Source: Escherichia coli
GTDB lineage: Bacteria; Pseudomonadota; Gammaproteobacteria; Enterobacterales; Enterobacteriaceae
Reading direction: 5' to 3' (one strand)
Assembly: GCF_050920415.1 (NCBI RefSeq)
Contig: NZ_CP169309.1
Length of the DNA: 64,000 nucleotides
Shown: piece after piece, positions 39,276 through 56,099 of the stretch
How positions within the stretch are numbered: position 1 is the first letter of the stretch
Layout: each line of letters begins with the position of its first letter
Notes under the pieces: generated by a model
The model's input: the letters and a program-made list of their open reading frames with translations, nothing else
The model's database searches: none
Told to the model about the DNA's origin: nothing
Program-made: the position numbers and the translations under genes

Positions 39276-40324
39276 GGTTTTTATTGGGCGTGCTGATGCT
39301 GATGATCTCCGGCTCAGCGCTGGCGACCATCGACGTGTTGCAGTTTAAAGATGAAGCACAGGAACAACAGTTTCGTCAGCTTACTGAAGAACTGCGCTGC
39401 CCGAAATGCCAGAATAACAGCATTGCCGATTCCAACTCGATGATTGCCACCGACCTGCGCCAGAAAGTGTACGAACTGATGCAGGAAGGTAAAAGTAAGA
39501 AAGAGATTGTCGATTATATGGTGGCGCGCTATGGCAACTTCGTCACTTACGATCCGCCGTTAACGCCGCTGACCGTTCTGCTGTGGGTGCTACCGGTAGT
39601 CGCTATTGGCATTGGCGGTTGGGTTATTTACTCCCGCTCGCGGCGTCGGGTACGCGTGGTGCAGGAAGAGTTTCCTGAACAAAGCGTGCCGGAAGGTAAG
39701 CGTGCCGGATATGTTGTTTATCTGCCGGGTATTGTGGTGGCGTTAATTGTGGCTGGCGTCAGCTACTACCAGACCGGCAATTATCAGCAGGTGAAAATTT
39801 GGCAGCAGGCCACGGCTCAGGCGCCGGCGTTATTGGACAGGGCGCTGGATCCGAAAGCTGAGCCGCTCAACGAAGAAGAGATGTCCCGCCTTGCGCTGGG
39901 GATGCGTACTCAACTGCAAAAAAATCCGGGAGATATAGAAGGCTGGATTATGTTGGGCCGCGTTGGCATGGCGCTGGGTAACGCCAGTATTGCCACCGAT
40001 GCATACGCCACTGCGTATCGCCTCGATCCGAAGAACAGCGATGCTGCACTGGGATACGCTGAAGCGTTGACACGTTCATCTGATCCCAACGACAACCGCC
40101 TGGGTGGTGAACTGCTACGCCAGTTGGTGAGAACGGACCATAGCAATATCCGTGTGTTAAGCATGTATGCGTTTAATGCCTTTGAGCAGCAGCGATTTGG
40201 CGAAGCCGTTGCCGCGTGGGAGATGATGTTGAAACTCTTACCTGCCAACGATACTCGCCGTGCGGTGATTGAACGCAGTATCGCGCAGGCGATGCAACAT
40301 TTATCACCACAGGAGAGTAAATAA
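39272..40324 (+). CDS. ccmH: Cytochrome c-type biogenesis protein CcmH
   Basis: 350-aa ORF; N-terminal CPKC motif, C-terminal TPR-like region. Confidence 0.9.
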   Translation: MRFLLGVLMLMISGSALATIDVLQFKDEAQEQQFRQLTEELRCPKCQNNSIADSNSMIATDLRQKVYELMQEGKSKKEIVDYMVARYGNFVTYDPPLTPLTVLLWVLPVVAIGIGGWVIYSRSRRRVRVVQEEFPEQSVPEGKRAGYVVYLPGIVVALIVAGVSYYQTGNYQQVKIWQQATAQAPALLDRALDPKAEPLNEEEMSRLALGMRTQLQKNPGDIEGWIMLGRVGMALGNASIATDAYATAYRLDPKNSDAALGYAEALTRSSDPNDNRLGGELLRQLVRTDHSNIRVLSMYAFNAFEQQRFGEAVAAWEMMLKLLPANDTRRAVIERSIAQAMQHLSPQESK

Positions 40325-40383
40325 GAACAAGCCCGATGGTGATGCCATCGGGCCAGACTGATGGCAAAGTGCGCTTTGTTTAT

Positions 40384-40417
40384 GCCAGATGCGGCGTAAA
40401 CGCCTTATTCAGCCTAC
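40384..40417 (+). repeat. REP element flanking the IS
   Basis: gccagatgcggcgtaaacgccttattcagcctac. Confidence 0.5.
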
Positions 40418-40512
40418 AAAATCGTGCGAACTCAATACATTGCTCGATCCGCGTAGATACTGTTATGGCCTGCAAGTTTTTTTCTACCCTGGTTTCCCAG
40501 ATTGCAGGCATG

Positions 40513-41745
<1,233 letters not shown>

Positions 41746-41815
41746 CGTAGCGCATCAGGCAGTTTTGCGTTTGTCATCAATATCAGCCCGAGGGTAAATC
41801 CATCGGGCTATTTTT

Positions 41816-42463
41816 TTATTGTGCCCCACGTTGTTGCAGGAACAGAATGGTGGCCGCCACGCGTGAGCGGACATTGAGTTTACGCAGCAGATTGCGAATG
41901 TGTACTTTTACTGTCTGCTCGGAAATATTCAACACCGCGGCAATCTGTTTATTTGACAGTCCCTGTGCCAGCTCGTGCAGAACATCCAGCTCGCGCTCCG
42001 TCAGCACGCTGAAGGGATCTTCTTCCGCGCCAAACATTTCACGTTCACGTAAGTACTGATTGACGCGTTCGCTAAAGACTTTGCTGCCTTTCGCTCCGGC
42101 ACGAATCGCTTCCAGCAACACTTCCGGGTCGCTGTCTTTCAACAGATAACCGTCTGCGCCTGCGTCTATCAGCGCAAAGACATCGCTGGAGGCATCTGAT
42201 ACGGTCAGGATAATAATTTGCGCGGTAACGCCATCCCTGCGCAAGGCATTGAGGGTATCCAGGCCACTCATACCTTTCATATTGAGATCCAGCAAGATCA
42301 CGTCGATATCCAGTCTATTCGCCAGATCGATAGCACTTGCGCCGTCGCCCGCTTCGGCGACCACTTCAAAGCCAGGATCAAGTTCCAGTAACTGACGAAC
42401 ACCGCGTCGCATAAGTGGATGATCATCCACAATCATCACCTGAAAAGGCGTTGCTTCAGGCAT
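41816..42463 (-). CDS. narP: Nitrate/nitrite response regulator NarP
   Basis: ORF 41816..42493; start placed at MPEATPFQVMIVDDHP; receiver plus LuxR HTH. Confidence 0.9.
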   Translation of the reverse strand: MPEATPFQVMIVDDHPLMRRGVRQLLELDPGFEVVAEAGDGASAIDLANRLDIDVILLDLNMKGMSGLDTLNALRRDGVTAQIIILTVSDASSDVFALIDAGADGYLLKDSDPEVLLEAIRAGAKGSKVFSERVNQYLREREMFGAEEDPFSVLTERELDVLHELAQGLSNKQIAAVLNISEQTVKVHIRNLLRKLNVRSRVAATILFLQQRGAQ

Positions 42464-42781
42464 AGTAGTCTCCTGAGGTTTTATTAGAATCATTATGTTT
42501 GAGCGTAGCGTTGGAAACGCTACCAGGCGCGTGAATGTTACCCCATTTTATGTATGGACATGTAGTGAAAAGTACAGCTCAGTAGTTCACCCTCGCATCA
42601 TTTTCATTATAAATATGGAATTTTGCATCAACTTCCCATCAAGAAAAACAACTAAAAAATCAATCACAATACATGTGCATTTCTTTAAACAGTTTTTAAA
42701 AACTGACTCCGGGTATGGCGCTATGGGTATTTTCAGTACCCAATGCTTTTACAGCAATTAATTTCATAGGATGAAAGATTA

Positions 42782-45376
42782 ATGCATCACTCTGGTTCTG
42801 TTTCTCTTTGTCGTTCCGCAATATCTGTTCTGGTGGCTACAGCGTTATATTCTCCCATAGCATTGGCATCAACTGTTGAGTATGGAACGACTGTTGATGG
42901 TGTTGTCCTGGAAAAAGATATCCAGCTGGTTTATGGGACCGCAAATAATACGAAAATCACTCCCAGCGGAGAACAGCATATAAAAGAATGTGGTGTAAGT
43001 AATAATGCTGAAATAAACGGAGGGTATCAGTACATTGAAGCATATGGCTCAGCAGAATACTCAGTATTAAATGATGGTTATCAAATTGTTCAATTGGGTG
43101 GTGCAGCAAACCAAACTACCATCAATAATGGTGTGTTACAGGTTTATGGAGCTGCTAATGAAGCCACTATTAAAGGCGGGCGCTTACTCGTTGAAACCGA
43201 AGGCATTGCCATCTTCGCCGTTATCGAAAAGGGAGGACTACTGGAGGTTAAAGATGGCGGATTGGCATTTGCGGTAGATCAAAAAGCAGGCGGTGCAATC
43301 AAAACAACCACGCGGGTTATGGAGGTATTCGGAACAAATCGTCTCGGTCAGTTTGATATCAAAGATGGGGTTGCTAACAATATGCTGTTGGAAAACGGCG
43401 GAAGTTTGCGGGTTGAAGAGAATGACTTCGCTTATAATACCACTGTGGATAGTGGTGGTTTACTGGAGGTTATGGATGGCGGGACTGCAACTGGCGTTGA
43501 CAAAAAAGCAGGCGGAAAATTAATTGTTTCAACGAATGCGCTGGAAGTGAGTGGTACAAACAGTAAAGGCCAATTTAGCATAAAAGATGGCGTGTCTAAA
43601 AATTATGAACTAGATGACGGTTCCGGGCTAATTGTTATGGAGGGCACTCAGGCAATTGACACTATCCTTGATGAGCATGCAACCATGCAATCGTTGGGAA
43701 GAGATACTGGTACGAGAGTGCAGGCACATGCAGTTTATGATCTTGGTCGGTCAGTGCAGAATGGAAGCATAAAATATTCCTCAAATGCTATATCTGAAAA
43801 TATGGTTATCGATAATGGTCGCGCTAATGTCTGGACTGGCACAATGGTTAACGTAACAGTCAGAGGAAATGAGGGCATTATTGATGCAATGGCGCTGGAA
43901 TTAAATTTTTATACACCGGCTACATTATTAGGTGACGTGGTGGTTTCTGATGGTGCATCTTTAAGAACGCATGGCGCAGTGGATACCAGTAAAGCAGATG
44001 TTTCTATCGAAGAGAGTTTTTGGGCTATTATTGCCGATATCAATAATATAAACCAAAACACCCGTCTCAATTTAGCAAACCTGGTGATGTCAGACGGAAC
44101 TGTCGTTATGATGGCTGAGCCAGTGACTCGTTCATCTGTGACGGCAAGTGCGGAAAATTTCACTACATTGACCACTAATACCCTGTCGGGAAACGGCAAT
44201 TTTTATATGCGCACCGATATGGCCAATCACCAGAGCGATCAGCTTAACGTCACCGATCAGGCAACAGGTAATTTCAAAATCTTCGTTACGGACACCGGTG
44301 CCAGCCCGGCAGCAGGAGATAGCCTTACACTGGTAACAACGGGCGGCGGTGATGCTGCATTTACCTTGGGCAATGCCGGAGGCGTTGTTGATATCGGTAC
44401 GTATGAATATATCTTGCAAGATAATGGCAACCATAGCTGGAGTCTGGCAGAGAATCGCACGCAAATAACTCCTTCAACCACTGATGTGTTGAATATGGCG
44501 GCAGCACAACCGCTGGTATTTGATGCAGAACTGGATACCGTACGTGAGCGTCTTGGTAGCGTAAAAGGCGTTAATTACGATACGGCGATGTGGAGTTCGG
44601 CAATTAACACCCGCAACAACGTAACCACTGATGCGGGAGCTGGCTTTGAGCAAACATTGACGGGGCTGACGCTCGGTATCGATAGCCGTTTCTCCCGTGA
44701 AGAAAGCAGCACAATTCGTGGCTTATTCTTTGGTTACTCTCATTCTGATATTGGTTTTGATCGCGGCGGTAAAGGCAATGTCGATAGCTATACCCTGGGG
44801 GCTTATGCCGGTTGGGAGCATCAGAACGGTGCCTATGTTGATGGGGTGGTGAAAGTTGACCGTTTTTCCAACACCATCCATGGCAAGATGAGTAATGGGG
44901 CAACAGCGTTTGGCGATTACAATAGTAACGGCGCGGGTGCTCATGTCGAGAGCGGGTTCCGTTGGGGGGAGGGGTTGTGGAATGTAAGGCCTTATCTGTC
45001 CTTTACCGGCTTTACCACTGATGGTCAGGACTATACGTTATCAAATGGTATGCGAGCGGATGTGGGAAATACCCGCATATTACGCGCTGAAGCGGGAACG
45101 GCGGTAAGCTATCACATGGACCTGCAAAACGGTACGACGCTGGAACCCTGGCTGAAAGCCGCCGTGCGTCAGGAATACGCCGATTCTAACCAGGTGAATG
45201 TTAATGACGACGGCAAATTTAATAATGACGTGGCTGGAACCCGTGGCGTTTATCAGGCTGGGATAAGGTCATCGTTTACCCCGACGTTAAGCGGTCATTT
45301 GTCAGTCAGCTATGGCAATGGCGCGGGGGTAGAATCACCGTGGAATACCCAGGCGGGTGTGGTCTGGACGTTCTGA
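42782..45376 (+). CDS. yejO: Autotransporter YejO, apparently intact (864 aa)
   Basis: 864-aa ORF with signal peptide, repetitive passenger region and C-terminal beta-barrel ending ...VVWTF. Confidence 0.8.
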   Translation: MHHSGSVSLCRSAISVLVATALYSPIALASTVEYGTTVDGVVLEKDIQLVYGTANNTKITPSGEQHIKECGVSNNAEINGGYQYIEAYGSAEYSVLNDGYQIVQLGGAANQTTINNGVLQVYGAANEATIKGGRLLVETEGIAIFAVIEKGGLLEVKDGGLAFAVDQKAGGAIKTTTRVMEVFGTNRLGQFDIKDGVANNMLLENGGSLRVEENDFAYNTTVDSGGLLEVMDGGTATGVDKKAGGKLIVSTNALEVSGTNSKGQFSIKDGVSKNYELDDGSGLIVMEGTQAIDTILDEHATMQSLGRDTGTRVQAHAVYDLGRSVQNGSIKYSSNAISENMVIDNGRANVWTGTMVNVTVRGNEGIIDAMALELNFYTPATLLGDVVVSDGASLRTHGAVDTSKADVSIEESFWAIIADINNINQNTRLNLANLVMSDGTVVMMAEPVTRSSVTASAENFTTLTTNTLSGNGNFYMRTDMANHQSDQLNVTDQATGNFKIFVTDTGASPAAGDSLTLVTTGGGDAAFTLGNAGGVVDIGTYEYILQDNGNHSWSLAENRTQITPSTTDVLNMAAAQPLVFDAELDTVRERLGSVKGVNYDTAMWSSAINTRNNVTTDAGAGFEQTLTGLTLGIDSRFSREESSTIRGLFFGYSHSDIGFDRGGKGNVDSYTLGAYAGWEHQNGAYVDGVVKVDRFSNTIHGKMSNGATAFGDYNSNGAGAHVESGFRWGEGLWNVRPYLSFTGFTTDGQDYTLSNGMRADVGNTRILRAEAGTAVSYHMDLQNGTTLEPWLKAAVRQEYADSNQVNVNDDGKFNNDVAGTRGVYQAGIRSSFTPTLSGHLSVSYGNGAGVESPWNTQAGVVWTF

Positions 45377-45440
45377 TAACAGAAAATAAACAGGCCGTAA
45401 TGTGTCGCGGTCTGTTTATCAAATTAATCGCAGATATAAA

Positions 45441-45470
45441 AAAAACCAACCGCAATAGGTTGGTTTTTCT
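45441..45470. terminator. Bidirectional terminator at the island/yejO junction
   Basis: aaaaaaccaaccgcaataggttggtttttct: hairpin with A/T runs on both sides. Confidence 0.55.
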
Positions 45471-45493
45471 TGGGATTTTTGGTCGCACGAGAG
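45471..45493. repeat. Distal att direct repeat of the proL island
   Basis: tgggatttttggtcgcacgagag resembles tgggcgatttggtcggcacgagag at the tRNA 3' end (56281..56304). Confidence 0.55.
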
Positions 45494-45660
45494 TAGTTTA
45501 ATTGAGTGTATAACTAAATGATTTTAAATAATATTCTTTATTCAACTTTTAAATCGTATAACCAAACGTATAACTAAAATAATTTGCTGAAAAAGTGTAC
45601 AATTTCAGCAATAATTGCCCTAGCGACTATCATCCTGCTCCCCGGATTTTTTCCGGTTAA

Positions 45661-45897
45661 ATGTTAATCAGGCTGCTGGGCTTTGCCTGTTCGGTAGGTG
45701 TAATGATTATCGTAATACTTTTCCCCCAATGGGGTAAAAGCATCAACCGTAACGGAAGTCGTTATGGTTGCCTTGATGATCTGCGTGGTCATTATGACCA
45801 TTCAGCCAATGACCTTAATCAGAGCTTTTCGCTAAAAATGACGTTGGCCACTCGTCCGAAAAGCACAAAATCCCATCGATTTTTAATTAACGGTTAA
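45661..45897 (+). CDS. Hypothetical small membrane protein (78 aa)
   Basis: ORF with hydrophobic N-terminal segment (LLGFACSVGVMIIVILF); no convincing RBS. Confidence 0.25.
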   Translation: MLIRLLGFACSVGVMIIVILFPQWGKSINRNGSRYGCLDDLRGHYDHSANDLNQSFSLKMTLATRPKSTKSHRFLING

Positions 45898-46035
45898 ACC
45901 GTCTTTTTGTCACGTCGTGTCACTGGTTGTCACTCTCCGTCACGATCTCCGATAGCCTGGCTGCAAATTAAACTACGAAAATTTCGTAGTTCTGACTTCT
46001 TTCAGATAGTCGGTTGCCTGGTTACACGAAAAAAA

Positions 46036-46407
46036 TTACTTCCTGCGTTTATCCCGCTTTGTATGTCCGTGCTGAATGCCCCGCAGTGGATCTTCTTTTT
46101 TCAGGTCGATCCCCATGTCCGTTAGTGTTTTTGTGGCGGCGGTTCTTATGGCACAAATCAGGTCTCTTTCCGGTTCCCGGGTTATGGTTGCCTTCCGGAT
46201 ACATGCCGTTCGTCGTTCCGTTACATACTGACGCGCTTCATCACTTGCCGCCTGTTTCAGTAACTCACCCCAGCGATTAGCCGCCCGTCGCCATAAACCT
46301 TTCGCTTCCAGTTCTTCCGCTTTGTCATCATGCACCATAAGCATAATCCCATTGATACCTGTTAAATCTGAATGGTTGGTTTCCGTTCTTTTGATAATTT
46401 CCCTCAT
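46036..46407 (-). CDS. Hypothetical protein, possibly PerC-family transcriptional activator-like
   Basis: 123-aa ORF with LEAKGLWRRAANRWGELL motif reminiscent of PerC-type activators; start may be an internal Met. Confidence 0.4.
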   Translation of the reverse strand: MREIIKRTETNHSDLTGINGIMLMVHDDKAEELEAKGLWRRAANRWGELLKQAASDEARQYVTERRTACIRKATITREPERDLICAIRTAATKTLTDMGIDLKKEDPLRGIQHGHTKRDKRRK

Positions 46408-46450
46408 AGCTTATTGTATGACAGTACTGTCCCACAATAAGGAATCACAC

Positions 46451-46750
46451 ATGAGAATGACCAGGCACAAAAAACAGATTCTTGAACTTTACAAACCTGA
46501 GTATCGCGATTGGGTGCGGGTGGAGGCCGGAGATCCGCCTTTTGATGTTCGTGGTGTGACAGTGCTGCTCTATGGTTCCGAATATCAGCGATATCACATA
46601 GAGGCAACCCGACGAACGTTAAACGCTATGGTAAATGATGGGATCCTGTACCGCGTGAAAGTGCGCGAACCCCGCTTTGATGTGCGTATCGGTAGCGATG
46701 GCGCTCACTGTACGGTAATCCGGTACGGGCTGGGTAAATCAGATGATTAA
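46451..46750 (+). CDS. Hypothetical protein (99 aa)
   Basis: Start chosen at ATG 46451 preceded by AAGGA RBS (ORF track extends upstream to 46322); no recognisable domain. Confidence 0.45.
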   Translation: MRMTRHKKQILELYKPEYRDWVRVEAGDPPFDVRGVTVLLYGSEYQRYHIEATRRTLNAMVNDGILYRVKVREPRFDVRIGSDGAHCTVIRYGLGKSDD

Positions 46751-46873
46751 ATCACCAGAATGTAAATTTACATTCTGCCAGCCACCAGCTACAGAACGCA
46801 AATTTGCACTTTGCTGAAATATTAACGGGTTAGGCCAGAGTGCAAATTTGCATTATGCTTTAACTTCAGCAAG

Positions 46874-47155
46874 TTACCGCCGTAACCGCTCCGGCTTCTT
46901 CCACTGGTACGTTATTTTGGCTTTTTCCCTGTACGTCTGTATCCGGCGACGGTAGGCCAGCATTTCAAGAACGCGGATCCGTATGTCGCGCATATCCGCA
47001 TCATTAAGCTGGATACCATCACGGTGCATCACCTCAGCAACCACACGAACATAATTTTCTGCGGTCACGCTGTCCGGCTGCGTGGCCTGTTCGTCAGCCT
47101 GCTGGTTGATTCCGGCGACGCGGCGGATTAATCGCAGTAGTTCGGTTTCTGTCAT
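46874..47155 (-). CDS. Hypothetical protein (93 aa)
   Basis: ORF just downstream of the capsid-gene terminator; no recognisable domain. Confidence 0.4.
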   Translation of the reverse strand: MTETELLRLIRRVAGINQQADEQATQPDSVTAENYVRVVAEVMHRDGIQLNDADMRDIRIRVLEMLAYRRRIQTYREKAKITYQWKKPERLRR

Positions 47156-47315
47156 TGTGCCCCCATCGCGCTGGTTAAGAAAACAAGCTCAGATTTTTTG
47201 TAAAGAATCTGTCACGCTAAAAGATGTCGAACAAAAAACAACCTTCTCCATCATCTTTTTTGCATCGATTACATTAAAAACAACAGGTTACATACATGAT
47301 GATGATGACGATAAA

Positions 47316-47412
47316 ATCACAAAAATGCGCTTTTTTCCGCGCCCGCCCGCCCCGTGTTCATACCCACCCCACCAGGAGGACCCGCAAAAAAGGCGGCTGG
47401 TGCCGCCTTGTT
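47316..47412 (-). repeat. Repeated non-coding element, copy A: terminator hairpin plus GC box
   Basis: Shares a ~38-bp near-identical core (aaaaatgcgc(t/c)tttttccgcgcccgcccgccccgtg) and similar downstream architecture with copy B. Confidence 0.6.
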
Positions 47413-47413
47413 G

Positions 47414-49303
47414 TCATAGTGAATCGGTACCGCCTGATTTGACCATACCGCGATAATCCAGAGCGGCCACACCAGCATCAATACGGACTTTCCAGGCCAC
47501 ACCGTCAACGATGAAACCTTCCTGCTGTTCAAGGTAAGGCTCGTCATTGCCATCAAGATAAGCCACCTCGATTGTGTCCGTTCCCTGTGCGGAAAGCATG
47601 TACCATTGTTTTTCGCTGATATCATCAAGGCGGGGATCGACGATAATATCCAGTAGTTTGTGATACGGGTTAAAGATCCCGCTGTTTTTATCTGCCCCGA
47701 AAGGTGCGGTTGAGTTAATCATCTGCAACGCGCGATCTTCCAGTGCTGCCGGAACTAAAAGGAATTTAGGCGCAATATTCAGCACTTCGCCATTTTTGTC
47801 CTTCTGTGTGCGCATCAGGTGACGTGCTGCACTAAGTCCCGGTGTTGTCAGTCCTGCTTCAATCAGGTTGCTGTGTTTTTTGTCAAACAGCGCTATTCCA
47901 TCAGAAAGTTTTACGTTGCCTGTAAGCACCAGATTAACCAGATTTCCCACCGTTCTTGATGCTGCACGGCCCATAGCCATTGGCACCGTTGATAACTGAT
48001 CAAGGTCATCATTGATTATCGCCTGGCGGGTAATGCTGAAAATATTCCCGTAAGTAGCCAGCGCGATGGGTTCACCGCGATCGCTGGTGGTGATGTATTT
48101 ATATTCTGCCCCTTCCGGCACTTTGTTTAACGTAGAGAAACCATTCAGACCAACGCGGCGGGCTTCACGAAAGTTTGAAAGGGAACCTTTTTTCGTCCAC
48201 TGGCGGAATGTTTCGCCGCTGTGCTCCCAGCCTGCAAGCACTGATTTTTCAGCACCACCAGCAAGGATATCGGTAAAATCGCTGCTGCTGTGGTTGAATG
48301 CCGCGTTTACTATCTGCGAGCGTGTTCCGTAGCTGCCCGTGCTTATACCACGATGGGTTAATGATGCCTGTGCCATATCGAAAAGGCTCATCATGGCGTA
48401 AGGATTACCGCGTTCGGCCCGTTCGTGACCAAGACGCGCATTAAGCCCCTGGCGCATTGCATCGCCGGTTATGTTGCCGTTATCCGTGTACGCGTAGTAA
48501 AGATTTGCGGGGGTGGTTTTATTTGTTGGCGTTGATTCTTTACCCATAGCGAGTAAAAGGCGTTCGCGTGCATTCTCAACGCTACATTCTGAATCAGCAA
48601 GACAACTTATAGCCAGGTCGTTATATCTTCCGTTGAACGTGCCAAACAATTCACGGATGCCGTTAAGTCGTTCCTGTTCGCCACTGCCAGTTTTCTGGCT
48701 GATCATGCTTTTAATTTTTTCCGGCATATTTGAAAAATCTCCGATTCGTTTTGATTCAATTCGGGCCATTGCTGTAATCGCGGGTATAACCTCATCTGCG
48801 AAGCCGTTAGCCTTACACTCATTGCCATCCATCCAGGTTTCCGCCTCCATCATGGCGGTGATTTCCTGTTTGCTCCTGCCCGTTCTTCCGGCGTAGGTTT
48901 CAGCCATCGTGTCGCCCAGCTTGTCCATCAGGTCAGCAAAGCGGCGAACGTCGCCCGACACTCCGGCAGTAACACCACGGGGGGCATGTATCATCATCAT
49001 TGCGTTTTCAGGCATAACGATGTGATCGCCACACATGGCAATAAACGAGGCCATAGAAGCCGCCATGCCTTCAATGTGTACAATTTTCTTTGCCGGATGA
49101 TTTTTCAGGGCGTTATAGATAGCCAGCCCTTCAAAGATGTCGCCACCAGGTGAATGGATGCGAAGATGGATTTCAGACGCATTACCACACGCGTTGATCT
49201 CGTCAGTAAGTGCCGATGCTTTTACACCGTACCCGCCGATCTCGTCATAAATGCGCACATAGACAACATCTGCCATAGCCTTAATGGAAAACCATGTTTT
49301 CAT
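47414..49303 (-). CDS. Prohead protease (ClpP/S14-like) fused to a capsid-like C-terminal domain
   Basis: 629-aa ORF: N-terminal ~180 aa has ClpP-like motifs (GMAASMAS, MMIHAP); C-terminal ~350 aa reads as an HK97-fold major capsid protein, assigned by impression only. Confidence 0.75.
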   Translation of the reverse strand: MKTWFSIKAMADVVYVRIYDEIGGYGVKASALTDEINACGNASEIHLRIHSPGGDIFEGLAIYNALKNHPAKKIVHIEGMAASMASFIAMCGDHIVMPENAMMMIHAPRGVTAGVSGDVRRFADLMDKLGDTMAETYAGRTGRSKQEITAMMEAETWMDGNECKANGFADEVIPAITAMARIESKRIGDFSNMPEKIKSMISQKTGSGEQERLNGIRELFGTFNGRYNDLAISCLADSECSVENARERLLLAMGKESTPTNKTTPANLYYAYTDNGNITGDAMRQGLNARLGHERAERGNPYAMMSLFDMAQASLTHRGISTGSYGTRSQIVNAAFNHSSSDFTDILAGGAEKSVLAGWEHSGETFRQWTKKGSLSNFREARRVGLNGFSTLNKVPEGAEYKYITTSDRGEPIALATYGNIFSITRQAIINDDLDQLSTVPMAMGRAASRTVGNLVNLVLTGNVKLSDGIALFDKKHSNLIEAGLTTPGLSAARHLMRTQKDKNGEVLNIAPKFLLVPAALEDRALQMINSTAPFGADKNSGIFNPYHKLLDIIVDPRLDDISEKQWYMLSAQGTDTIEVAYLDGNDEPYLEQQEGFIVDGVAWKVRIDAGVAALDYRGMVKSGGTDSL

Positions 49304-49494
49304 AGCCAGGCTCCTAACGTTGCCCTGTACCAGTATTCAACCGCGCTGCGTGTGATTTGTCCTTTCGTGGGTACCGGCATACCCGGGTGATTGTCTTTGA
49401 TGAACTGCTGATAGCGTTCGATCTTCTCCATAGTTCCGGCGTCTATGTGTACCGTGGCACTTTTATCCGGCTTTCTGGTGTTGTTCTCTGGCAT
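49300..49494 (-). CDS. Hypothetical small protein coupled to the protease-capsid gene
   Basis: ORF 49300..49527; internal ATG at 49494 has a strong GGAGG RBS; stop overlaps capsid ATG (ATGA). Confidence 0.45.
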   Translation of the reverse strand: MPENNTRKPDKSATVHIDAGTMEKIERYQQFIKDNHPGMPVPTKGQITRSAVEYWYRATLGAWL

Positions 49495-49854
49495 AAATCC
49501 GCCTCCGTTTTGATTAACGGGCATCATTATTGATCGATAAAAGTAATAGATAAATCATTTTCTACCTGAAAATTAGATTATATTTTTTCTGATTATTCTC
49601 AGAGAGGCAAAGCCATTGACGCATTTTTGCTATTGAAGCAATATTAAGACTCGTCATCCTGGCGATAAAAACTCCTTTGTCGTGTAAAAGCGCCTCCGGT
49701 AACAGCAATCGAGGGCGCTTTTTTTTGCGCCTGTTTTTTTGTAAATGTTTTCGGGAACGCTCCAGTGATGAACAAAAAACAACCTGATTCGACACTAAAA
49801 ATTTTTATTCCTCAATATATCAATAACTTATAGTGGTGGTGATGGTGCCATAAA

Positions 49855-49952
49855 AATCAAAAAATGCGCCTTTTTCCGCGCCCGCCCGCCCCGTGGACAG
49901 GCCCACCAAGCCAGGAGTACCTACAAAAAAGCCGGATTGCTCCGGCTGTGTG
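49855..49952 (-). repeat. Repeated non-coding element, copy B
   Basis: See copy A; hairpin gccggattgctccggc plus GC box. Confidence 0.6.
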
Positions 49953-49965
49953 CTCACTTCTTCGG

Positions 49966-50217
49966 TTATTCTCCAGCGCTTTTAACGTTGATGGTTGTAA
50001 CCTGTTCCGCTTCGGCAATCTCCCATTCTGTCAGCGTGGCAAAGTTTGCCGCCGCTGTGGTCATGAATGCGCTTATCAGGTCGGGATGTGCTTTCGCGTA
50101 TCCTTCCCCCGTGTTGCGGTCGATGATTTTTATCGCCACTCTCAGCCAGTGCTCTGTAAGGTCAATGGCGCGGTTATGCTGCTTCTTCTGATTATTAAGT
50201 TTTCCTGATGTGCGCAT
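49966..50217 (-). CDS. Hypothetical protein (83 aa)
   Basis: ORF between the iteron array and repeat copy B; G-rich RBS-like sequence upstream. Confidence 0.4.
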   Translation of the reverse strand: MRTSGKLNNQKKQHNRAIDLTEHWLRVAIKIIDRNTGEGYAKAHPDLISAFMTTAAANFATLTEWEIAEAEQVTTINVKSAGE

Positions 50218-50249
50218 TTTTATTTTTACCCCCTCGTTTAAAAAGTTTT

Positions 50250-50500
50250 GAGTTGTGCCTCCCCTTGTCTACCTTATCTACCTTACTGGCCACCATGCCA
50301 GTAATGGCGCGGCTTTCAGTGGGGTAGAGTGCTTTTATCCACTATCTACCCCGTATCTACCTCCCTGTCTGATTCAGGTAAAATCAGGTAGAGAGGGTAG
50401 ATAGTAGGTAGACAGTAAAAAAAGGCTGTCTACCCAAGTTAATGTACTGAATTAAATGTATTTTTCTTTACTCAGGTAGACAGGGTAGACAGCCATTGCA
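50250..50500. repeat. Iteron array, putative replication origin
   Basis: At least 11 copies of GGTAGA/TCTACC in both orientations within ~250 bp, just 3' of the replication gene. Confidence 0.55.
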
Positions 50501-50505
50501 ACAAA

Positions 50506-52254
50506 TTATAAAAACGCGTCGCAATCGTCTGTTGTTATTGCGTTAGTCTGCGTTACTCCTTTAACTTTCCGCGTAATATATTCATGTCCGTAAACTTTCG
50601 CGGCTGGCTTCATAGCCTTGCCAAAGTCATTTACGTTTAGCGGTTTGCTCCTGCCTGCGTACGCCATAAACGCCAGATAGACGCGGTAAAGGCTGTTTCT
50701 GGTCGTGTACTTCACTGAATCGCCACCGCCGCCCATCATCAGGCCGCGTGCTTCCTCCAGAAAATTCAGGAACTGGCAAAACTCAATAACCGGATCCGTC
50801 TGTTGCTTTATTGCCAGTGCTTCATCACCGTCACGCTGTTCAATGAGTAAAGCCCGTGCCTTTTCAGGGTCGGCAAAGTTCGCCAGCAAGCGGCGGATAA
50901 TGACAGGGATTTCAGCCGCGATCTTTTCCGGTAGCTCCCTGTCTTTTTCTGCCTCGCTTACGATGTTATCGAACCGGAATATCACCCGACGACGTGCCAC
51001 ACCTCCGGCCCGTTCGGTGAATATCATCGGATTGTTATTGGTTGCCAGCACCACCGCCCTGATTACCGCCGTAAAACGCTTTTCATATTTCGGGTTAATT
51101 TCCACGGGGTCGCCGCCCGTGATTTTCTTGATGCCCGTTCCTTCGCCTGTATATTTCTGCTGGTCTGCCAGGACGATAAGACGACTCCCGACAACCTGCG
51201 CACGCCCACCAGCATCATCAAGCGATGTCATTTCAGCGCTTACCGTGTTTTGTTTCCCTGCCAGAAGGCTGGCTATGTGTGTGAATGTACTTTTACCGCT
51301 CCCGCCGTCTCCGGTGGCCTCAATAAACATCTGCCAGTCGTACCGGTTCGCCATAATCATGTACAGCGCGGCACATATACGCATCATCTTGCTCGGGTCT
51401 TTTCCGGCTGCGTGCTCAAGCCATTTATGAAAGTTTGGCGCGTTATCGCGGATGTTCTCCCCGGGTGCTGGTGGCGTGTACTCAATGCCGTTGTGCGTGG
51501 TGATCCAGTTCTCCGGCGTGTGCGGGGAAAATTCCCCCGTTTTCAGGTCAAGCGCACCATTGGCGAACGGCAGCAAATCGCCGGACGGCTCGCCCATTGG
51601 TTCGGCAATAACTTTTAACGCTTCCACGGCGTTATTGATTACGCGCTTGCTGAAAGTGGCCCTGTGCTCTGAATAGATAGCCACCATTTCGCGGCTCAGC
51701 TCCATTGTGCTGACCGGACACCATACCCCGCCGCGCCATACGTGAACGATTTCACTTTCAGGATGCACACAAACGCCATCAAAGCGCTCGGCAAGCAGCT
51801 GCGCGCGCTCACTGTCTGCCATTTGTGCCAGTTGCGTATTTTTCTGCTCCGGCATGGTAAGCCCTGCGGCAATATTTTCACGCTCAGCATTCAGATAGCG
51901 CCGCCAGTTTTCACACTTCTGGACGTGCATTCCTTCGGGGTAAAAATTTGCGTCCTGAATATCTGCCGCCGCCAGCTTCTGACCAATCTTTTTGGTCTCC
52001 ACCAAATCCAGTTCTCCGGCCTGGTACAGCCTTACGCGCTTTTTCCCATCCGGAACAATTTTCAGTGCATCAAGTTCGGCAAGCTGATTTGGCCCAAGCC
52101 ACACAGGCGGCACATTATCGCCGGATGCGGGGCCATCCTGCTCCTGCCATTGTTTCGCGTGCGACCAGGCATCACTACCCGCGAAAATAATTACCTCTGT
52201 GTCTTTGTGTTTTATTCCGCGTGGCTGTTTTTTTACGTTCGGTGCCAGTTTCAT
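50506..52254 (-). CDS. Replication protein: NTPase/helicase-like with Walker A motif (primase-helicase-like)
   Basis: 582-aa ORF with Walker A GDGGSGKST and a putative Walker B (LIVLAD); SF3/D5/P4-alpha-type assignment is by impression. Confidence 0.75.
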   Translation of the reverse strand: MKLAPNVKKQPRGIKHKDTEVIIFAGSDAWSHAKQWQEQDGPASGDNVPPVWLGPNQLAELDALKIVPDGKKRVRLYQAGELDLVETKKIGQKLAAADIQDANFYPEGMHVQKCENWRRYLNAERENIAAGLTMPEQKNTQLAQMADSERAQLLAERFDGVCVHPESEIVHVWRGGVWCPVSTMELSREMVAIYSEHRATFSKRVINNAVEALKVIAEPMGEPSGDLLPFANGALDLKTGEFSPHTPENWITTHNGIEYTPPAPGENIRDNAPNFHKWLEHAAGKDPSKMMRICAALYMIMANRYDWQMFIEATGDGGSGKSTFTHIASLLAGKQNTVSAEMTSLDDAGGRAQVVGSRLIVLADQQKYTGEGTGIKKITGGDPVEINPKYEKRFTAVIRAVVLATNNNPMIFTERAGGVARRRVIFRFDNIVSEAEKDRELPEKIAAEIPVIIRRLLANFADPEKARALLIEQRDGDEALAIKQQTDPVIEFCQFLNFLEEARGLMMGGGGDSVKYTTRNSLYRVYLAFMAYAGRSKPLNVNDFGKAMKPAAKVYGHEYITRKVKGVTQTNAITTDDCDAFL

Positions 52255-52550
52255 TTTTTACCCCTGAATACGTTAAGCATCTTTTTTATTTCCTGAATAT
52301 TGGCGCGTGCTTTCTCCCTGCTGGTTGGTTTACTGCGGGGCGCTGCCTGTACCAGAGAAAAATCACGCCGAAACTGATAAACAGGCATCACGCAATCATA
52401 TTCGTAGCCTTCACGACGGTAGGTGATGCGCCGTTCTGCCACGCCTTTAATCGTTACCATGCCGCCATATTTATCGCGGTAAATATCGCCGCGCGTAAAT
52501 TTAGGGTGAGTGTTGCCACTAGCAGTTAAGCCAGAAATTTTCTTTTTCAT
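52251..52550 (-). CDS. Hypothetical protein (99 aa), coupled to the replication gene
   Basis: Stop overlaps replication-gene start; basic protein. Confidence 0.45.
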   Translation of the reverse strand: MKKKISGLTASGNTHPKFTRGDIYRDKYGGMVTIKGVAERRITYRREGYEYDCVMPVYQFRRDFSLVQAAPRSKPTSREKARANIQEIKKMLNVFRGKK

Positions 52551-52566
52551 GGTTTTTATTCCGCGT

Positions 52567-52782
52567 TTATTTTTTATCGTGAATTTCGATCGCTTTATTT
52601 AATTCGGTGATTACCGTATCGAGTAATGAAATAAACGCACCAGCAAGATTAGATTCACGTTCACCTTCCGGCGCATCACTTAAACCATCAAGCCAGATAA
52701 GCAATATTTGCCGCAAGCATTCACTGTTAGTCAGTGCGTTTTCTGCATGGCTCATTAATTTAAAATAACGGTCATCATGCAT
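52567..52782 (-). CDS. Hypothetical protein (~71 aa)
   Basis: ORF 52567..52827; internal ATG at 52782 has AAGGGG RBS and sits 2 nt after the upstream gene's stop. Confidence 0.4.
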   Translation of the reverse strand: MHDDRYFKLMSHAENALTNSECLRQILLIWLDGLSDAPEGERESNLAGAFISLLDTVITELNKAIEIHDKK

Positions 52783-53011
52783 GGTGCGCCCCTTGAATAT
52801 CTGCGGTAAGAATTTTGCCTGCCTCATTCAGCGCCATATCAGCACTAAGTTGCATAACCGCCAGCGAATGAGGAACGAAAGCCCCTGCATATTCTGTTTC
52901 ACTGGTGGCGTGCTTATGCGCCATGTCAGCAATAACAGAAATATCAATAAGCGCATCCATCAGCGTTTTGATGGCTTCGGCGGCTGCGTCCGGACGGGGG
53001 TTATTGCACAT
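52775..53011 (-). CDS. Hypothetical protein (78 aa), first gene of the replication operon
   Basis: Strong GGAGG RBS 6-7 nt upstream of ATG; faces the divergent operator region. Confidence 0.45.
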   Translation of the reverse strand: MCNNPRPDAAAEAIKTLMDALIDISVIADMAHKHATSETEYAGAFVPHSLAVMQLSADMALNEAGKILTADIQGAHHA

Positions 53012-53289
53012 GGCGCACCTCCTGACGAATACGGGCGGCGAATACCATCACGCAGCCAGCCGGGGATTGCTGGCGGGCTTCCTGTTCGCTGGTGGCCTCG
53101 ATGGTAATCACGCGCGGTTGTGCCGTGCTCAGGGCGATAAAACGCCAGATGTATTTATTCAGGTTGTGCGAATCCCGCCCTTGCGGGTGTGTGGTATGAT
53201 TTCTCATAGCTGCCTCGATACTCTTTCTATCGTTGGTGGTTAGACGCCCTGCATGTGTGCCACCACTGCGGGGCGTTGCGTTTTTTGAT

Positions 53290-53347
53290 GCACACGTGTT
53301 AAGGTGTACACCTACAAAGCAAAAACATAACGCCATAGGTGTACACA
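53290..53347. promoter_or_regulatory. Operator cluster in the divergent control region
   Basis: Palindromes ACACGTGT (53293), GGTGTACACC (53303..53312) and AGGTGTACAC (53338..53346, overlapping the RBS of the plus-strand gene). Confidence 0.5.
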
Positions 53348-53541
53348 TGTCAACAGTTATTAAGCGCGATAAAAAACAAAAAGGCACAGGAAAGACCCCA
53401 CCGTTCCATATGCGTATAGTTCCTGAATTGAAGGAGCAGTTTGATAACGAAGCCAGTAACGATGGAGTAAGTCTTGCCAACTGGCTTAAAGAGTTGGGGC
53501 GCGCCGAACTAAAGCGACGCGGCATTGAACCTAAAGGCTGA
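53347..53541 (+). CDS. Small DNA-binding regulator, putative ribbon-helix-helix (64 aa)
   Basis: ATG with AGGTG RBS; HMRIVPELKEQF strand-like then helical DGVSLANWLKELGRAEL suggests RHH (assigned by impression); divergent from the replication operon. Confidence 0.45.
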   Translation: MSTVIKRDKKQKGTGKTPPFHMRIVPELKEQFDNEASNDGVSLANWLKELGRAELKRRGIEPKG

Positions 53542-53544
53542 TGT

Positions 53545-53664
53545 ATGACCGATAACAAACTTTCTCTAACAGAGAATAAACCATCAGGCTTCTTACCAAG
53601 AAAAATCCTTGATGAGATCAAACGCCGCCAGCGTAAAAAATCCAAAGGAGCAGACACGGAATAG
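53545..53664 (+). CDS. Hypothetical basic peptide (39 aa)
   Basis: Short ORF 3 nt after the upstream stop; below the ORF-track length cutoff. Confidence 0.2.
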   Translation: MTDNKLSLTENKPSGFLPRKILDEIKRRQRKKSKGADTE

Positions 53665-53667
53665 CTT

Positions 53668-53832
53668 ATGCAACAAATACCATACTGGCTTGGCTCTCTG
53701 TTTGTATTTGCATTTCTCATGAAATATTGCATTAGCAATGAACTTGTCGGTAATGAAAGTGCATGCGCGAGCGCTGAAAAAAATATTCCACTTCTCGTAT
53801 ATGAAAACGAAAGCCCTGTGAACCGCAATTGA
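53668..53832 (+). CDS. Hypothetical small membrane peptide (54 aa)
   Basis: ATG 3 nt after the upstream stop; hydrophobic N-terminus (YWLGSLFVFAFLM) then polar tail. Confidence 0.25.
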   Translation: MQQIPYWLGSLFVFAFLMKYCISNELVGNESACASAEKNIPLLVYENESPVNRN

Positions 53833-54108
53833 GCGAAATTTAATGAATTCACTCTTTGCCCACCAGCCGCAAATGTGGCATTGTTGGCGATGCTCATGCG
53901 TTGGGGATAACGTGTAGCTTGTGTCGAAGGGCCATCGTGACAGGTGGCCTTTTCTTTACCTGTTATCTGGCAATTGTGGCGCTTCGTCACACGGTTGATA
54001 TAATTCCCCTGCACTGATCCATTTTTTTCGCAGCAGGTTAATTGTTCGCAAGGGCGCTCCGGCAACGGGGCGCTTTTTGTTATGTTCATCACGTTACGCC
54101 TCACACCA

Positions 54109-54315
54109 TTACGCAGCCGTTCCGCGCGCTTCTTCCTCGCGCTCTTTCAGCCAGGCCAGCACTTCATCTTCATACCAGCCAACACGACGCAGACCGATTT
54201 TGAAGCCTTTCGGAAATTTTCCGGCGTTGATCATGTCCTGTAGCGAACTGTCTGCCTTGATGCGCAGAATATTTTTTACTTCCTGACGGGTAAGAATTTT
54301 TCTGATTGTTTCCAC
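54109..54315 (-). CDS. alpA: AlpA-family transcriptional regulator/excisionase-like protein (GTG start)
   Basis: 68-aa ORF with MerR-like HTH (LTRQEVKNILRIKADSSLQDMINAGKFPKGFKIG...); typical neighbour of P4-type integrases. Confidence 0.8.
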   Translation of the reverse strand: METIRKILTRQEVKNILRIKADSSLQDMINAGKFPKGFKIGLRRVGWYEDEVLAWLKEREEEARGTAA

Positions 54316-54384
54316 TATGTTTTACCTCGTTAATCCGGCGTATTCCGGTGATAAATACGGTAAAACAGGGCAGGGCGGGAAAAA

Positions 54385-54420
54385 CAGTACCCACCGTTTT
54401 AAAACGGTACCCACTGTTTT
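54385..54420. promoter_or_regulatory. Putative operator upstream of alpA
   Basis: acaGTACCCACcgtttt aaaacgGTACCCACtgtttt: motif repeated 20 bp apart around a central palindrome. Confidence 0.4.
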
Positions 54421-54485
54421 TTATCTTATTGATTACGCTTTTCTTTCTGCAAAAAAATAGCGACCGCAAGGGGCCGCTATTGTGA

Positions 54486-54728
54486 TTACCGTTTCCACTT
54501 CTTAGGTCGCCCACCGCATTTAAGGCTGGTGGGCCTCAGCACCTTGTCGATGCTTTCAGCCAGATTTTTCGATGCGCCACGCGAGCGCAAAAAACTGACT
54601 ACCTCGTGTTTTGTGGGGGCAGTTGATTTGTCTTCCGGATCGTACGTTGACCAGAATTCACGATTTGCCATTAAGGCCAACTGAAGGCCTTCACCATAGG
54701 CAGGGGATACCTTTTCATTGAAAAACAC
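54486..54728 (-). CDS. Hypothetical protein (80 aa) between integrase and alpA
   Basis: ORF followed by a hairpin/T-run near 54455..54480. Confidence 0.3.
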   Translation of the reverse strand: MFFNEKVSPAYGEGLQLALMANREFWSTYDPEDKSTAPTKHEVVSFLRSRGASKNLAESIDKVLRPTSLKCGGRPKKWKR

Positions 54729-54829
54729 TCGGATAACTCCTTGAATTTCAAGAGTCGGGTCTCTCTGTATATGGTGATTATACGATGGTTTAGCATGGTT
54801 TGCATCGCTTTTACTGGTTTTTTGTACAG

Positions 54830-56071
54830 TTATACGGCACGGATACCCCTTTTACCACTGGCTATGGTCACTCCGGTTGCTGCGGCCTCTACAAATTCCC
54901 CCCACCAGCGCATAAGCACCACGCGCTTTTCCAGGTAGTTACTTCGGTTATATGCTCGCCTTACCTCGTTCGTGTCCACGTGTGCGAGTGCGGCCTCGAT
55001 TACGTCCGGCTCGAATCCTTCCTCGTTCGCTGCTGTGCTGAATATGGCGCGTAATCCATGAGACACCAGCACGCCAGCGAATCCCATTCGCCGCAATGCT
55101 GCGTTGGCGGTCTGGCTGTTCATAGGCTGCCGTGGGTCTTTCAGGCTAGGGAAAACGTGCTCGCGGTGGTGGCTGATTGGCTTCATGGCCTCCAGTACCG
55201 CCATAGCCTGACTACAAAGCGGGATAACGTGATCACGCCGCATCTTCATGCGTCCGGCGGGGATCGTCCATTGTTGCGCGTCCATGTCGATTTCTTCCCA
55301 GCGTGCTGACGATGCTTCAACCGGACGGGTTACAGTCAGTAGCTGCCATTCAATCAGTAATCTGGTCTGCCGTTCTGTTGCTGATACGGATAAAGCCTGC
55401 ATAAGCTCCGGCAACTGTTCGGGGCGGATTGTTGGCATATGTTTTTTTACAGGGGAGGGGAACGCCTTACGCACATTCATAGCCGGATTGGCATCAATCA
55501 GCCCACTGTTGGCGGCGTAATCCATTACCTCATTAACGCGCTGTAAAACCCGCTTGAGTGTTTCCAGGTTGCCGCGCTCCTTGATGGGTGTAAGCACCTC
55601 AACGAACCTTCGGGCAGTGAGGGTATCTATTGGCGTGTTGCCGATGAACGGGAATACATATTTATCCAGCGAACGCCAGATGTCTTTAATCGTGTTGGGG
55701 GCCAGATTCTGGCTGATTTTCACCTGGTACCATGCCGCCGCCACATTTTCGAACGTGTTCCCTTGTCTTCGGGCCTCTGCCTCTCGTTTTTTCTTCTCAT
55801 GGTCCTGCGGGTCAGTTCCGGCACTGATTAACGTCCTGTACTCGCTACGGCGTTTTCTGGCATCAGCCAGGGAAACATCTTCAAGAGATCCAAAACTCAG
55901 CAATATTCTTTTTTTGTCCGATGGTCGGTAGTAGGAAAATCGCCAGAGTTTTGATCCGGACGGTTTTACCAGGAGAAAAAGCCCACCGCCGTCCTGTAGG
56001 GTGTACTCCTTTTGCGCTGGTCTGGCTGCTTTGATCTGCACTGTGGTTAATGGGGGTGTTTTTCTCGCCAT
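54830..56071 (-). CDS. int: Tyrosine site-specific integrase (P4-type)
   Basis: ORF 54830..56089; start placed at MARKTPPLTT; N-terminal arm-binding-like domain and catalytic HGLR...LAH...Y. Confidence 0.9.
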   Translation of the reverse strand: MARKTPPLTTVQIKAARPAQKEYTLQDGGGLFLLVKPSGSKLWRFSYYRPSDKKRILLSFGSLEDVSLADARKRRSEYRTLISAGTDPQDHEKKKREAEARRQGNTFENVAAAWYQVKISQNLAPNTIKDIWRSLDKYVFPFIGNTPIDTLTARRFVEVLTPIKERGNLETLKRVLQRVNEVMDYAANSGLIDANPAMNVRKAFPSPVKKHMPTIRPEQLPELMQALSVSATERQTRLLIEWQLLTVTRPVEASSARWEEIDMDAQQWTIPAGRMKMRRDHVIPLCSQAMAVLEAMKPISHHREHVFPSLKDPRQPMNSQTANAALRRMGFAGVLVSHGLRAIFSTAANEEGFEPDVIEAALAHVDTNEVRRAYNRSNYLEKRVVLMRWWGEFVEAAATGVTIASGKRGIRAV

Positions 56072-56099
56072 ATGTCTATGATTCCACACGAAAAAACAG

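Follow-up and report, generated by a model that had tools for sequence, protein, structure and literature searches.

The segment 45661-47155 of the 64-kb stretch of Escherichia coli DNA analysed here (the window) carries four small open reading frames (ORFs) at one end of an integrated element. In our judgement this segment is probably the integrase-distal end of a 10.8-kb satellite of the phage-inducible chromosomal island (PICI) kind, and it would have three components, namely a gene of the satellite backbone, an accessory cassette of a regulatory kind and terminal DNA that holds no conserved gene. The ORFs are located at 45661-45897 (+, 78 amino acids (aa)), 46036-46407 (−, 123 aa), 46451-46750 (+, 99 aa) and 46874-47155 (−, 93 aa), between the capsid gene (47414-49303) and the distal attachment (att) repeat (45480-45493), as given in a preliminary description of the sequence. 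That description regarded the four ORFs as a cargo region, and the term holds in part. A variable slot is present, occupied by a cassette with a PerC-family gene and the 99-aa gene in 46 of 5,426 complete genomes (presence counted as at least 80% of the gene pair 46036-46750). The region is not one block: the 93-aa gene belongs to the satellite backbone, and the 78-aa ORF is not a conserved gene. The cassette probably serves to regulate genes of the host or the island rather than to interfere with phages.

The PerC-family gene and the accessory cassette

Judged by its sequence, 46036-46338 on the minus strand is a genuine PerC-family gene, encoding a PchE-like regulator. The Pfam family PF06069 matches the 123-aa form, which reaches 46407, with an E value of 1.1e-22 (residues 24-106, model positions 1-82 of 90). 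The motif LEAKGLWRRAANRW, from which a PerC-like protein had been suspected, is located within this domain, and PHROG transcriptional-activator families also match the protein. With the Pfam match, the earlier statement that none of the four ORFs has an assignable function proves too strong. The gene is real, and the start of the 123-aa form requires correction. The conserved coding sequence (CDS) begins at Met24 (46338) and encodes 100 aa. Of the four related cassettes compared, three do not have the upstream ATG, and in the fourth one base is inserted just downstream of it. Because the upstream ATG is not kept in related cassettes, we take the 100-aa CDS as the conserved form. RefSeq WP_001360810.1 corresponds to this form and is named 'PerC family transcriptional regulator'.

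The PerC protein is 51% identical over 78 residues to PchE (ECs_1588, Sakai Sp7) and 40% identical to another island-borne PerC. The identity is at most 46% to any plasmid-borne member and at most 44% to any phage-borne member. NF033650, the family of AraC negative regulators (ANR), gave 18.4 bits with an E value of 0.0014, below its cutoff of 32. Downstream of the gene, the perfect 10-bp inverted repeat AACTACGAAA/TTTCGTAGTT (45966-45991, minus strand) is a candidate terminator. The same repeat is found with a 100% match in the related locus L007, where it is located downstream of the 93-aa gene.

The functions of several relatives are known. Pch relieves the silencing of LEE1, in the enterocyte effacement locus (LEE), by H-NS, StpA and Hha (PMC4764244), and PchE acts as a repressor of csgD and curli (PMC6265319). 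LEE1 is also repressed by EcCIMP1_025, which is carried on a PICI, and PerC-like genes are described as frequent in Gram-negative PICIs (PMC11773190). The characterised PerC relatives target host virulence, curli and motility genes, not phages (PMC4764244, PMC6265319, PMC11773190).

The accessory cassette extends from about 45993 to about 46858, as delimited by alignments of islands that carry it and islands that do not. Its 0.87 kb, flanked by the shared terminal DNA and the 93-aa gene, comprise the PerC and 99-aa genes, a 32-bp palindrome and three 22-bp palindromes. The position is empty in most related islands, where the shared terminal DNA follows the 93-aa gene at a distance of about 100 bp or less. 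Four different satellite backbones carry the cassette, with two att sites represented. It is mosaic: the 99-aa gene has recombinant halves, with identities of 64-100%. In one relative (L012, strain CFIAFB20180511, 2923-3818), a Panacea-domain protein and an adjacent 145-aa protein are encoded between the att site and the PerC cassette. This pair could be of the toxin-antitoxin type, and its presence there indicates that the island end is a real variable slot.

The 99-aa and 93-aa genes converge, and the three 22-bp palindromes (46757-46857) are located between their 3' ends. The first one is perfect (CAGAATGTAAATTTACATTCTG), and the consensus core is TGCAAATTTGCA. The 64-kb window has no other match to the motif, and of the fetched loci only those bearing the cassette (L001, L003, L010 and L011) have exact copies. 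The arrangement resembles an operator array; neither a binding protein nor a promoter is evident.

The 99-aa gene and the 32-bp palindrome

The 99-aa gene (46451-46750, plus strand) belongs to an unnamed Enterobacterales family. Its ribosome-binding site is AAGGA. Against four diverged copies, the ratio of nonsynonymous to synonymous differences per site (pN/pS) is 0.13-0.29, with pS up to 0.38, and this substitution pattern marks the ORF as a real gene under purifying selection. A first search returned 17 close relatives. With a profile including a 51%-identical paralogue from an O111 strain, about 580 proteins were found throughout Enterobacterales. They are mostly 117-125 aa long, and all are annotated as 'hypothetical' and have no Pfam domain. 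The copy here is without the last ~20 residues of the family. For the 99-aa protein no Pfam, PHROG or PDB match was obtained, even with a 20-sequence family profile. According to the structure model, the 99-aa protein is tentatively assigned as probably a winged-helix DNA-binding protein.

The location of the family is constant. The gene always occupies that end of a prophage or satellite which is distal to the integrase; in a 10.5-kb Klebsiella aerogenes record it is located just across the attachment region from the integrase gene. At most loci it faces a divergently transcribed neighbour, which differs from case to case. Here this is PerC; Yersinia has Fic and a 337-aa protein, Klebsiella a 179-aa protein, Salmonella four small genes and the O111 strain an HNH endonuclease.

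The 32-bp palindrome CTTATTGTATGACAGTACTGTCCCACAATAAG (46410-46441) is located 10-45 nt before the start codon of the 99-aa gene and directly adjoins the ribosome-binding site. It has the form CTTATTGTAnGAyAG..CTrTCnnACAATAAG and runs into AAGGA. The palindrome precedes every copy examined, in Escherichia, Salmonella, Klebsiella, Yersinia, Buttiauxella, Pluralibacter and Citrobacter, and the DNA upstream of it is unrelated among these copies. Two inner pairs, in a 4-bp inner helix, covary via G-U intermediates. The outer arms have eight uncompensated mismatches, and the observed score was reached by 12 of 500 shuffles. The palindrome is a candidate operator or a candidate hairpin of the 5' untranslated region, and the pair counts do not settle between them. 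A promoter scan gave fewer matches than in shuffled sequence and was of no help in placing promoters.

In the reading that we prefer, the 93-aa gene would be the last gene of the late transcription unit of the satellite, and the cassette would be exchanged by recombination. We infer that the 99-aa protein, as a dimer, would bind the 32-bp palindrome before its own gene. This binding would set the expression of the 99-aa gene and of the gene facing it, here PerC. By analogy with the Pch proteins, the PchE-like protein may change the transcription of H-NS-silenced host or island promoters via nucleoid-protein complexes. It would not be a classical sequence-specific factor, and the analogy does not tell activation from repression. 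The 78-aa ORF would fall in the terminal DNA by chance.

Several points weigh against this reading. The members of the PerC family vary in effect (activation, repression or none), so that the target and the direction of action are unpredictable. The structure model of the 99-aa protein is of low confidence (predicted local distance difference test score (pLDDT) 51, from a 12-sequence alignment) and has no sequence-profile support. The 32-bp palindrome could act as an mRNA hairpin instead. At some loci the family gene abuts chromosomal genes without facing cargo, which weakens the idea of a cargo regulator. The reading gives no explanation for the three 22-bp palindromes beyond the 3' end of the 99-aa gene. 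Finally, the PerC block (45993-46400 of the window) is 96-100% identical across L003, L010, L011 and L012, although the cassette flanks are only 64-90% identical; the pS of the block is 0-0.04, against 0.3-0.5 for the adjacent genes. This identity suggests a recent recombination sweep or an extra constraint on the DNA sequence.

A broader proposal concerns the 99-aa family itself. It would be an undescribed and widespread family that marks the integrase-distal ends of prophages and satellites, and its palindrome would be a portable control for adjacent cargo, here gating PerC. We consider such a 'cargo-slot regulator' conceivable and rather doubtful.

Alternatively, the cassette may control the life cycle of the satellite, with a winged-helix repressor and a PerC-like activator of the satellite late (capsid) operon or of late genes of the helper phage. 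Both products of the cassette look like regulators, and the island has no other PerC gene. In other satellites of the group a PerC-family gene (pchE in Sakai Sp7) belongs to the early region and directly precedes the capsid module. In addition, the three 22-bp palindromes are located at the 3' end of the late unit, and a helper-type cos site adjoins. The proposal is weakened because the cassette is dispensable, as islands of the same backbone exist without it. The 99-aa family is also found at the ends of ordinary prophages beside unrelated cargo, and pchE has host phenotypes (PMC6265319). On balance, control of the life cycle appears unlikely.

The satellite backbone and the terminal DNA

The 93-aa gene (46874-47155, minus strand) is, from its orthology to ECs_1599, a gene of the satellite backbone and not cargo. 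The protein has 83% identity to ECs_1599, the gene that closes Sakai Sp7 (= CP-933C = EcCIEDL933) directly after terL, and it matches phrog_1561 end to end. The pN/pS of about 0.3 shows purifying selection. Several types of E. coli satellite end with this conserved gene: capsid-forming islands (at phoQ and tqsA), an island with capsid, decoration and small terminase subunit (TerS) genes, islands with TerS only, and islands with the capsid fusion described below. The family is a narrow one (35 representatives when clustered at 50%), and no tblastn match was found in 50,697 phage records. The structure model is a helical hairpin (pLDDT 72), for which no informative fold match was obtained. Capsid-forming satellites without interference with their helper carry the gene as well (bioRxiv 10.1101/2022.09.08.507074).

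Just upstream of the 93-aa gene, a cos-like region is located at 47188-47408 (minus strand). About 200 nt of it are 85-86% identical to the stretch directly upstream of terS in Shiga toxin 2a (Stx2a) and verotoxin 1 (VT1) phages, and the 93-aa gene starts 33 nt after the cos-like stretch. A second, partial copy at 49850-49947 (minus strand) has only the core in common. The core in both copies is ACGGGGCGGGCGGGCGCGGAAAAA(A/G)GCGC, which we take to resemble lambda cosN. The cos-like elements suggest helpers of the lambdoid or Stx type. The 93-aa protein was also considered as a TerS and rejected: it has no similarity to the TerS that follows the homologous Stx2a cos (BLASTP E value 5.1) and no Pfam match.

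According to the preliminary description, the ORFs of this region may serve helper interference or anti-phage functions. The variable slot at the satellite end agrees with this proposal, as does the Panacea-domain gene pair found there in L012. Moreover, the 93-aa gene is satellite-specific and absent from phages, and it occupies the place of terS after a phage cos site. The proposal is weakened because no defence-family signal was found: none of the four ORFs matched PADLOC-DB v2 (5,027 defence models) at E values up to 0.01. The content that can be identified is regulatory, with a PerC/Pch protein of a host-gene regulator family and a probable winged-helix protein. As for the 93-aa protein, similarity to TerS is absent, a PDB sequence search including the Rpp entries found nothing, and the occurrence in non-interfering capsid-forming satellites argues in the same direction. 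We therefore regard anti-phage or helper-interference cargo as improbable. The layout is an ordinary one for such islands, with no recognisable anti-phage system.

The shared terminal DNA (45642-45946, defined by alignments) holds the 78-aa ORF, a weak terminator-like hairpin (45890-45908) and four GTCAC motifs (45909-45943) spaced by about 10 nt, or about one helical turn. It is matched in 1,082 of the 5,426 complete E. coli genomes, and the homologous stretch has no annotated gene in 38 of the 40 listed RefSeq rows. The shared DNA starts just inside the (C/T)GTATAAC repeats that also flank the integrase gene. It is found also in islands at other att sites (phoQ, clpS and tqsA), and therefore it is part of a common satellite backbone rather than the att arms of one integrase. 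The piece has no counterpart in the 50,697 phage records. A phage origin was rejected: the sole phage match is 26 nt long, is located outside the piece at 45966-45991 and falls in an unrelated gene.

The 78-aa ORF (45661-45897, plus strand), which had been listed as a membrane-like gene, did not stand as a gene. Its ATG, right after an in-frame TAA, is ACG, CTG or CAT in six related islands (L002 and L004-L008). In these islands the frame is disrupted by indels of 1, 2 and 5 nt and by stops, and L004 has a large deletion within the ORF. The ORF is whole only in the near-identical islands L001 and L010. No family match was found in PHROGs, NCBIfam or PADLOC. From this comparison we judge it to be a lineage-specific chance ORF, not a conserved gene.

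Another idea is that a short hydrophobic peptide, perhaps a type I toxin, is specified by the terminal DNA. Two ORFs with hydrophobic stretches come into question, the 78-aa one and one of 23 aa (MVALMICVVIMTIQPMTLIRAFR, 45764-45835, plus strand). The 23-aa ORF is located in the best-conserved part of the terminal DNA and is intact in L002, L005 and L006, and genes for small hydrophobic peptides frequently escape annotation. Against this, the start or the body is lost in L004, L007 and L008, the substitutions are mainly non-synonymous, an NCBIfam match is absent even at an E value of 10, and no partner antisense RNA was found with Rfam. A toxin of this kind is highly improbable. An Rfam scan of 40000-57000, at E values up to 0.1, detected only the tRNA and, outside the region, an naRNA4 match below threshold.

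The island spans 45480-56304 (about 10.8 kb) and is inserted at tRNA-Pro (proL) in the yejO/yejM interval. The chromosomal order in the window is the ccm genes, narP, yejO, the island, tRNA-Pro(GGG) (56290-56366) and yejM. The distal att repeat TGGTCGCACGAGAG (45480-45493), read from the sequence, is an imperfect copy of the tRNA-Pro 3' end, where its partner TGGTCGGCACGAGAG is located (56290-56304). The (C/T)GTATAAC repeats (family D2), present at 45495-45590 and next to the integrase gene at 56107-56170, are candidate arm-type sites of the integrase. The integrase gene is located at 54830-56089, and the island content includes small early genes. A 99-aa DUF4222 gene is followed by the P4-family primase (50506-52254, TIGR01613), two small genes and a fusion of ClpP protease and major capsid protein (47414-49303, minus strand, NF045540). 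The fusion is the sole morphogenetic gene, and tail, lysis, portal and terminase genes are absent from the island. In strain OkiPb01679 the island is 99.7% identical and its RefSeq annotation is the same; a helix-turn-helix regulator is annotated there near the integrase gene.

Because of this gene content (integrase, primase and capsid fusion, with no tail, lysis, portal or terminase genes), the island is a phage satellite of the PICI kind. Of the features of Gram-negative PICIs, it has an integrase, a primase, att flanks, a size of about 10-15 kb, and the lack of tail and lysis genes. It is neither a capsid-forming PICI (cf-PICI) nor an Rpp-type PICI. A cf-PICI encodes its own capsid, protease, portal, head-tail connectors, HNH, TerS and large terminase subunit (TerL), and the island has the ClpP-protease/capsid fusion alone. 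Rpp, the protein that characterises the type of EcCICFT073, has 144-153 aa and resembles the DNA-binding domain of TerS, and no CDS of that size is annotated in the near-identical island; the small island proteins have no PDB sequence match. An Icd-like pseudogene is present together with the P4-family primase. Psu, Sid and Delta are unannotated in the near-identical RefSeq island and absent from general family scans of ten island proteins, which included no dedicated profiles for them. The ClpP/capsid-fusion satellite type fits neither the cf-PICI nor the Rpp-PICI definition and does not appear to fit that of P4-like satellites.

Some further observations were made on the island and its surroundings. 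Besides an integrase and AlpA, the K. aerogenes record CP142848.1 (L025, 10,541 bp) encodes a 99-aa family member, a TerS-like protein (DUF1441) and the same kind of ClpP/capsid fusion, and it may be a complete or episomal satellite of the same type. The 99-aa DUF4222 protein (52251-52550, minus strand), encoded directly upstream of the primase gene, is an RgdR orthologue with 86% identity to Sakai ECs_1581, and RGD corresponds to residues 20-22. RgdR activates LEE1 and type III secretion, and represses motility (PMC3378721). Outside the island, an IS110-family transposase ORF (40888-41541, minus strand) with its flanks (about 40336-41541) separates ccmH from narP; in the otherwise near-identical OkiPb01679 this gap is 35 nt. 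In the window yejO (42782-45376, plus strand) is an intact 864-aa ORF, and it is annotated with a frameshift or internal stop in OkiPb01679 and GB089.

Significance and comparison with known systems

In pathogenic E. coli, PerC/Pch-type regulators encoded on prophages and satellites alter the control of genes for virulence, curli and motility. A divergent PerC copy, moving as a small cassette among satellites of bovine and food isolates (some named Shiga toxin-producing E. coli), adds a route by which such regulators spread. PerC-like genes on E. coli PICIs were known already, and the gene equated here with ECs_1599 was known as an annotated hypothetical. The only new lead is the unnamed 99-aa family, which occurs at mobile-element ends together with an invariant palindrome. 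As for annotation, one ORF is dropped, one start is corrected, one 'cargo' gene is reassigned to the backbone, and one unnamed family is recognised. Current views of phage satellites are unchallenged.

Among the closest known systems is PchE (ECs_1588) of Sp7/CP-933C/EcCIEDL933 in E. coli O157:H7, a group 3 PerC homologue. It is likewise a small PerC-domain protein encoded on a satellite island, and the two proteins have the N-terminal motif MVHD..AEELEAKG..RRAA.RWGE in common. They differ in that only about half of the residues are identical. Furthermore, pchE is located between ssb and the capsid module, whereas the gene here is located in a terminal accessory cassette beside a divergent partner gene. 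PerC of the pEAF plasmid of enteropathogenic E. coli and PchA/B/C of the lambdoid prophages of enterohaemorrhagic E. coli have the PF06069 domain in common with the protein here. They are anti-silencers of H-NS-bound promoters such as LEE1 (PMC4764244), whereas group 2 and 3 PerC relatives do not activate LEE (PMC6265319).

EcCIMP1_025 is a PerC-family accessory gene on an E. coli PICI with weak similarity to ANR, and both features are found here (PMC11773190); the likeness is drawn from the description of that gene. In the case of the 99-aa protein, the likeness to winged-helix repressors (ArsR, HxlR, MarR and PadR) comes from the low-confidence model, and no sequence-profile match to them was obtained.

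At the level of the whole island, the E. coli PICIs EcCICFT073 (Rpp-type) and EcCIEDL933 (cf-PICI) are similar in having an integrase, an RgdR-like gene followed by a P4-family primase, and a PerC-family gene (PMC6739421). The likeness extends to a lambdoid-type cos in two copies, as EcCICFT073 has two cos sites like the island here, and to the last gene, which is the same as in Sp7. In contrast to EcCICFT073 and EcCIEDL933, the island here has no Rpp-sized, portal, terminase or HNH gene, and the protease-capsid fusion stands in it alone.

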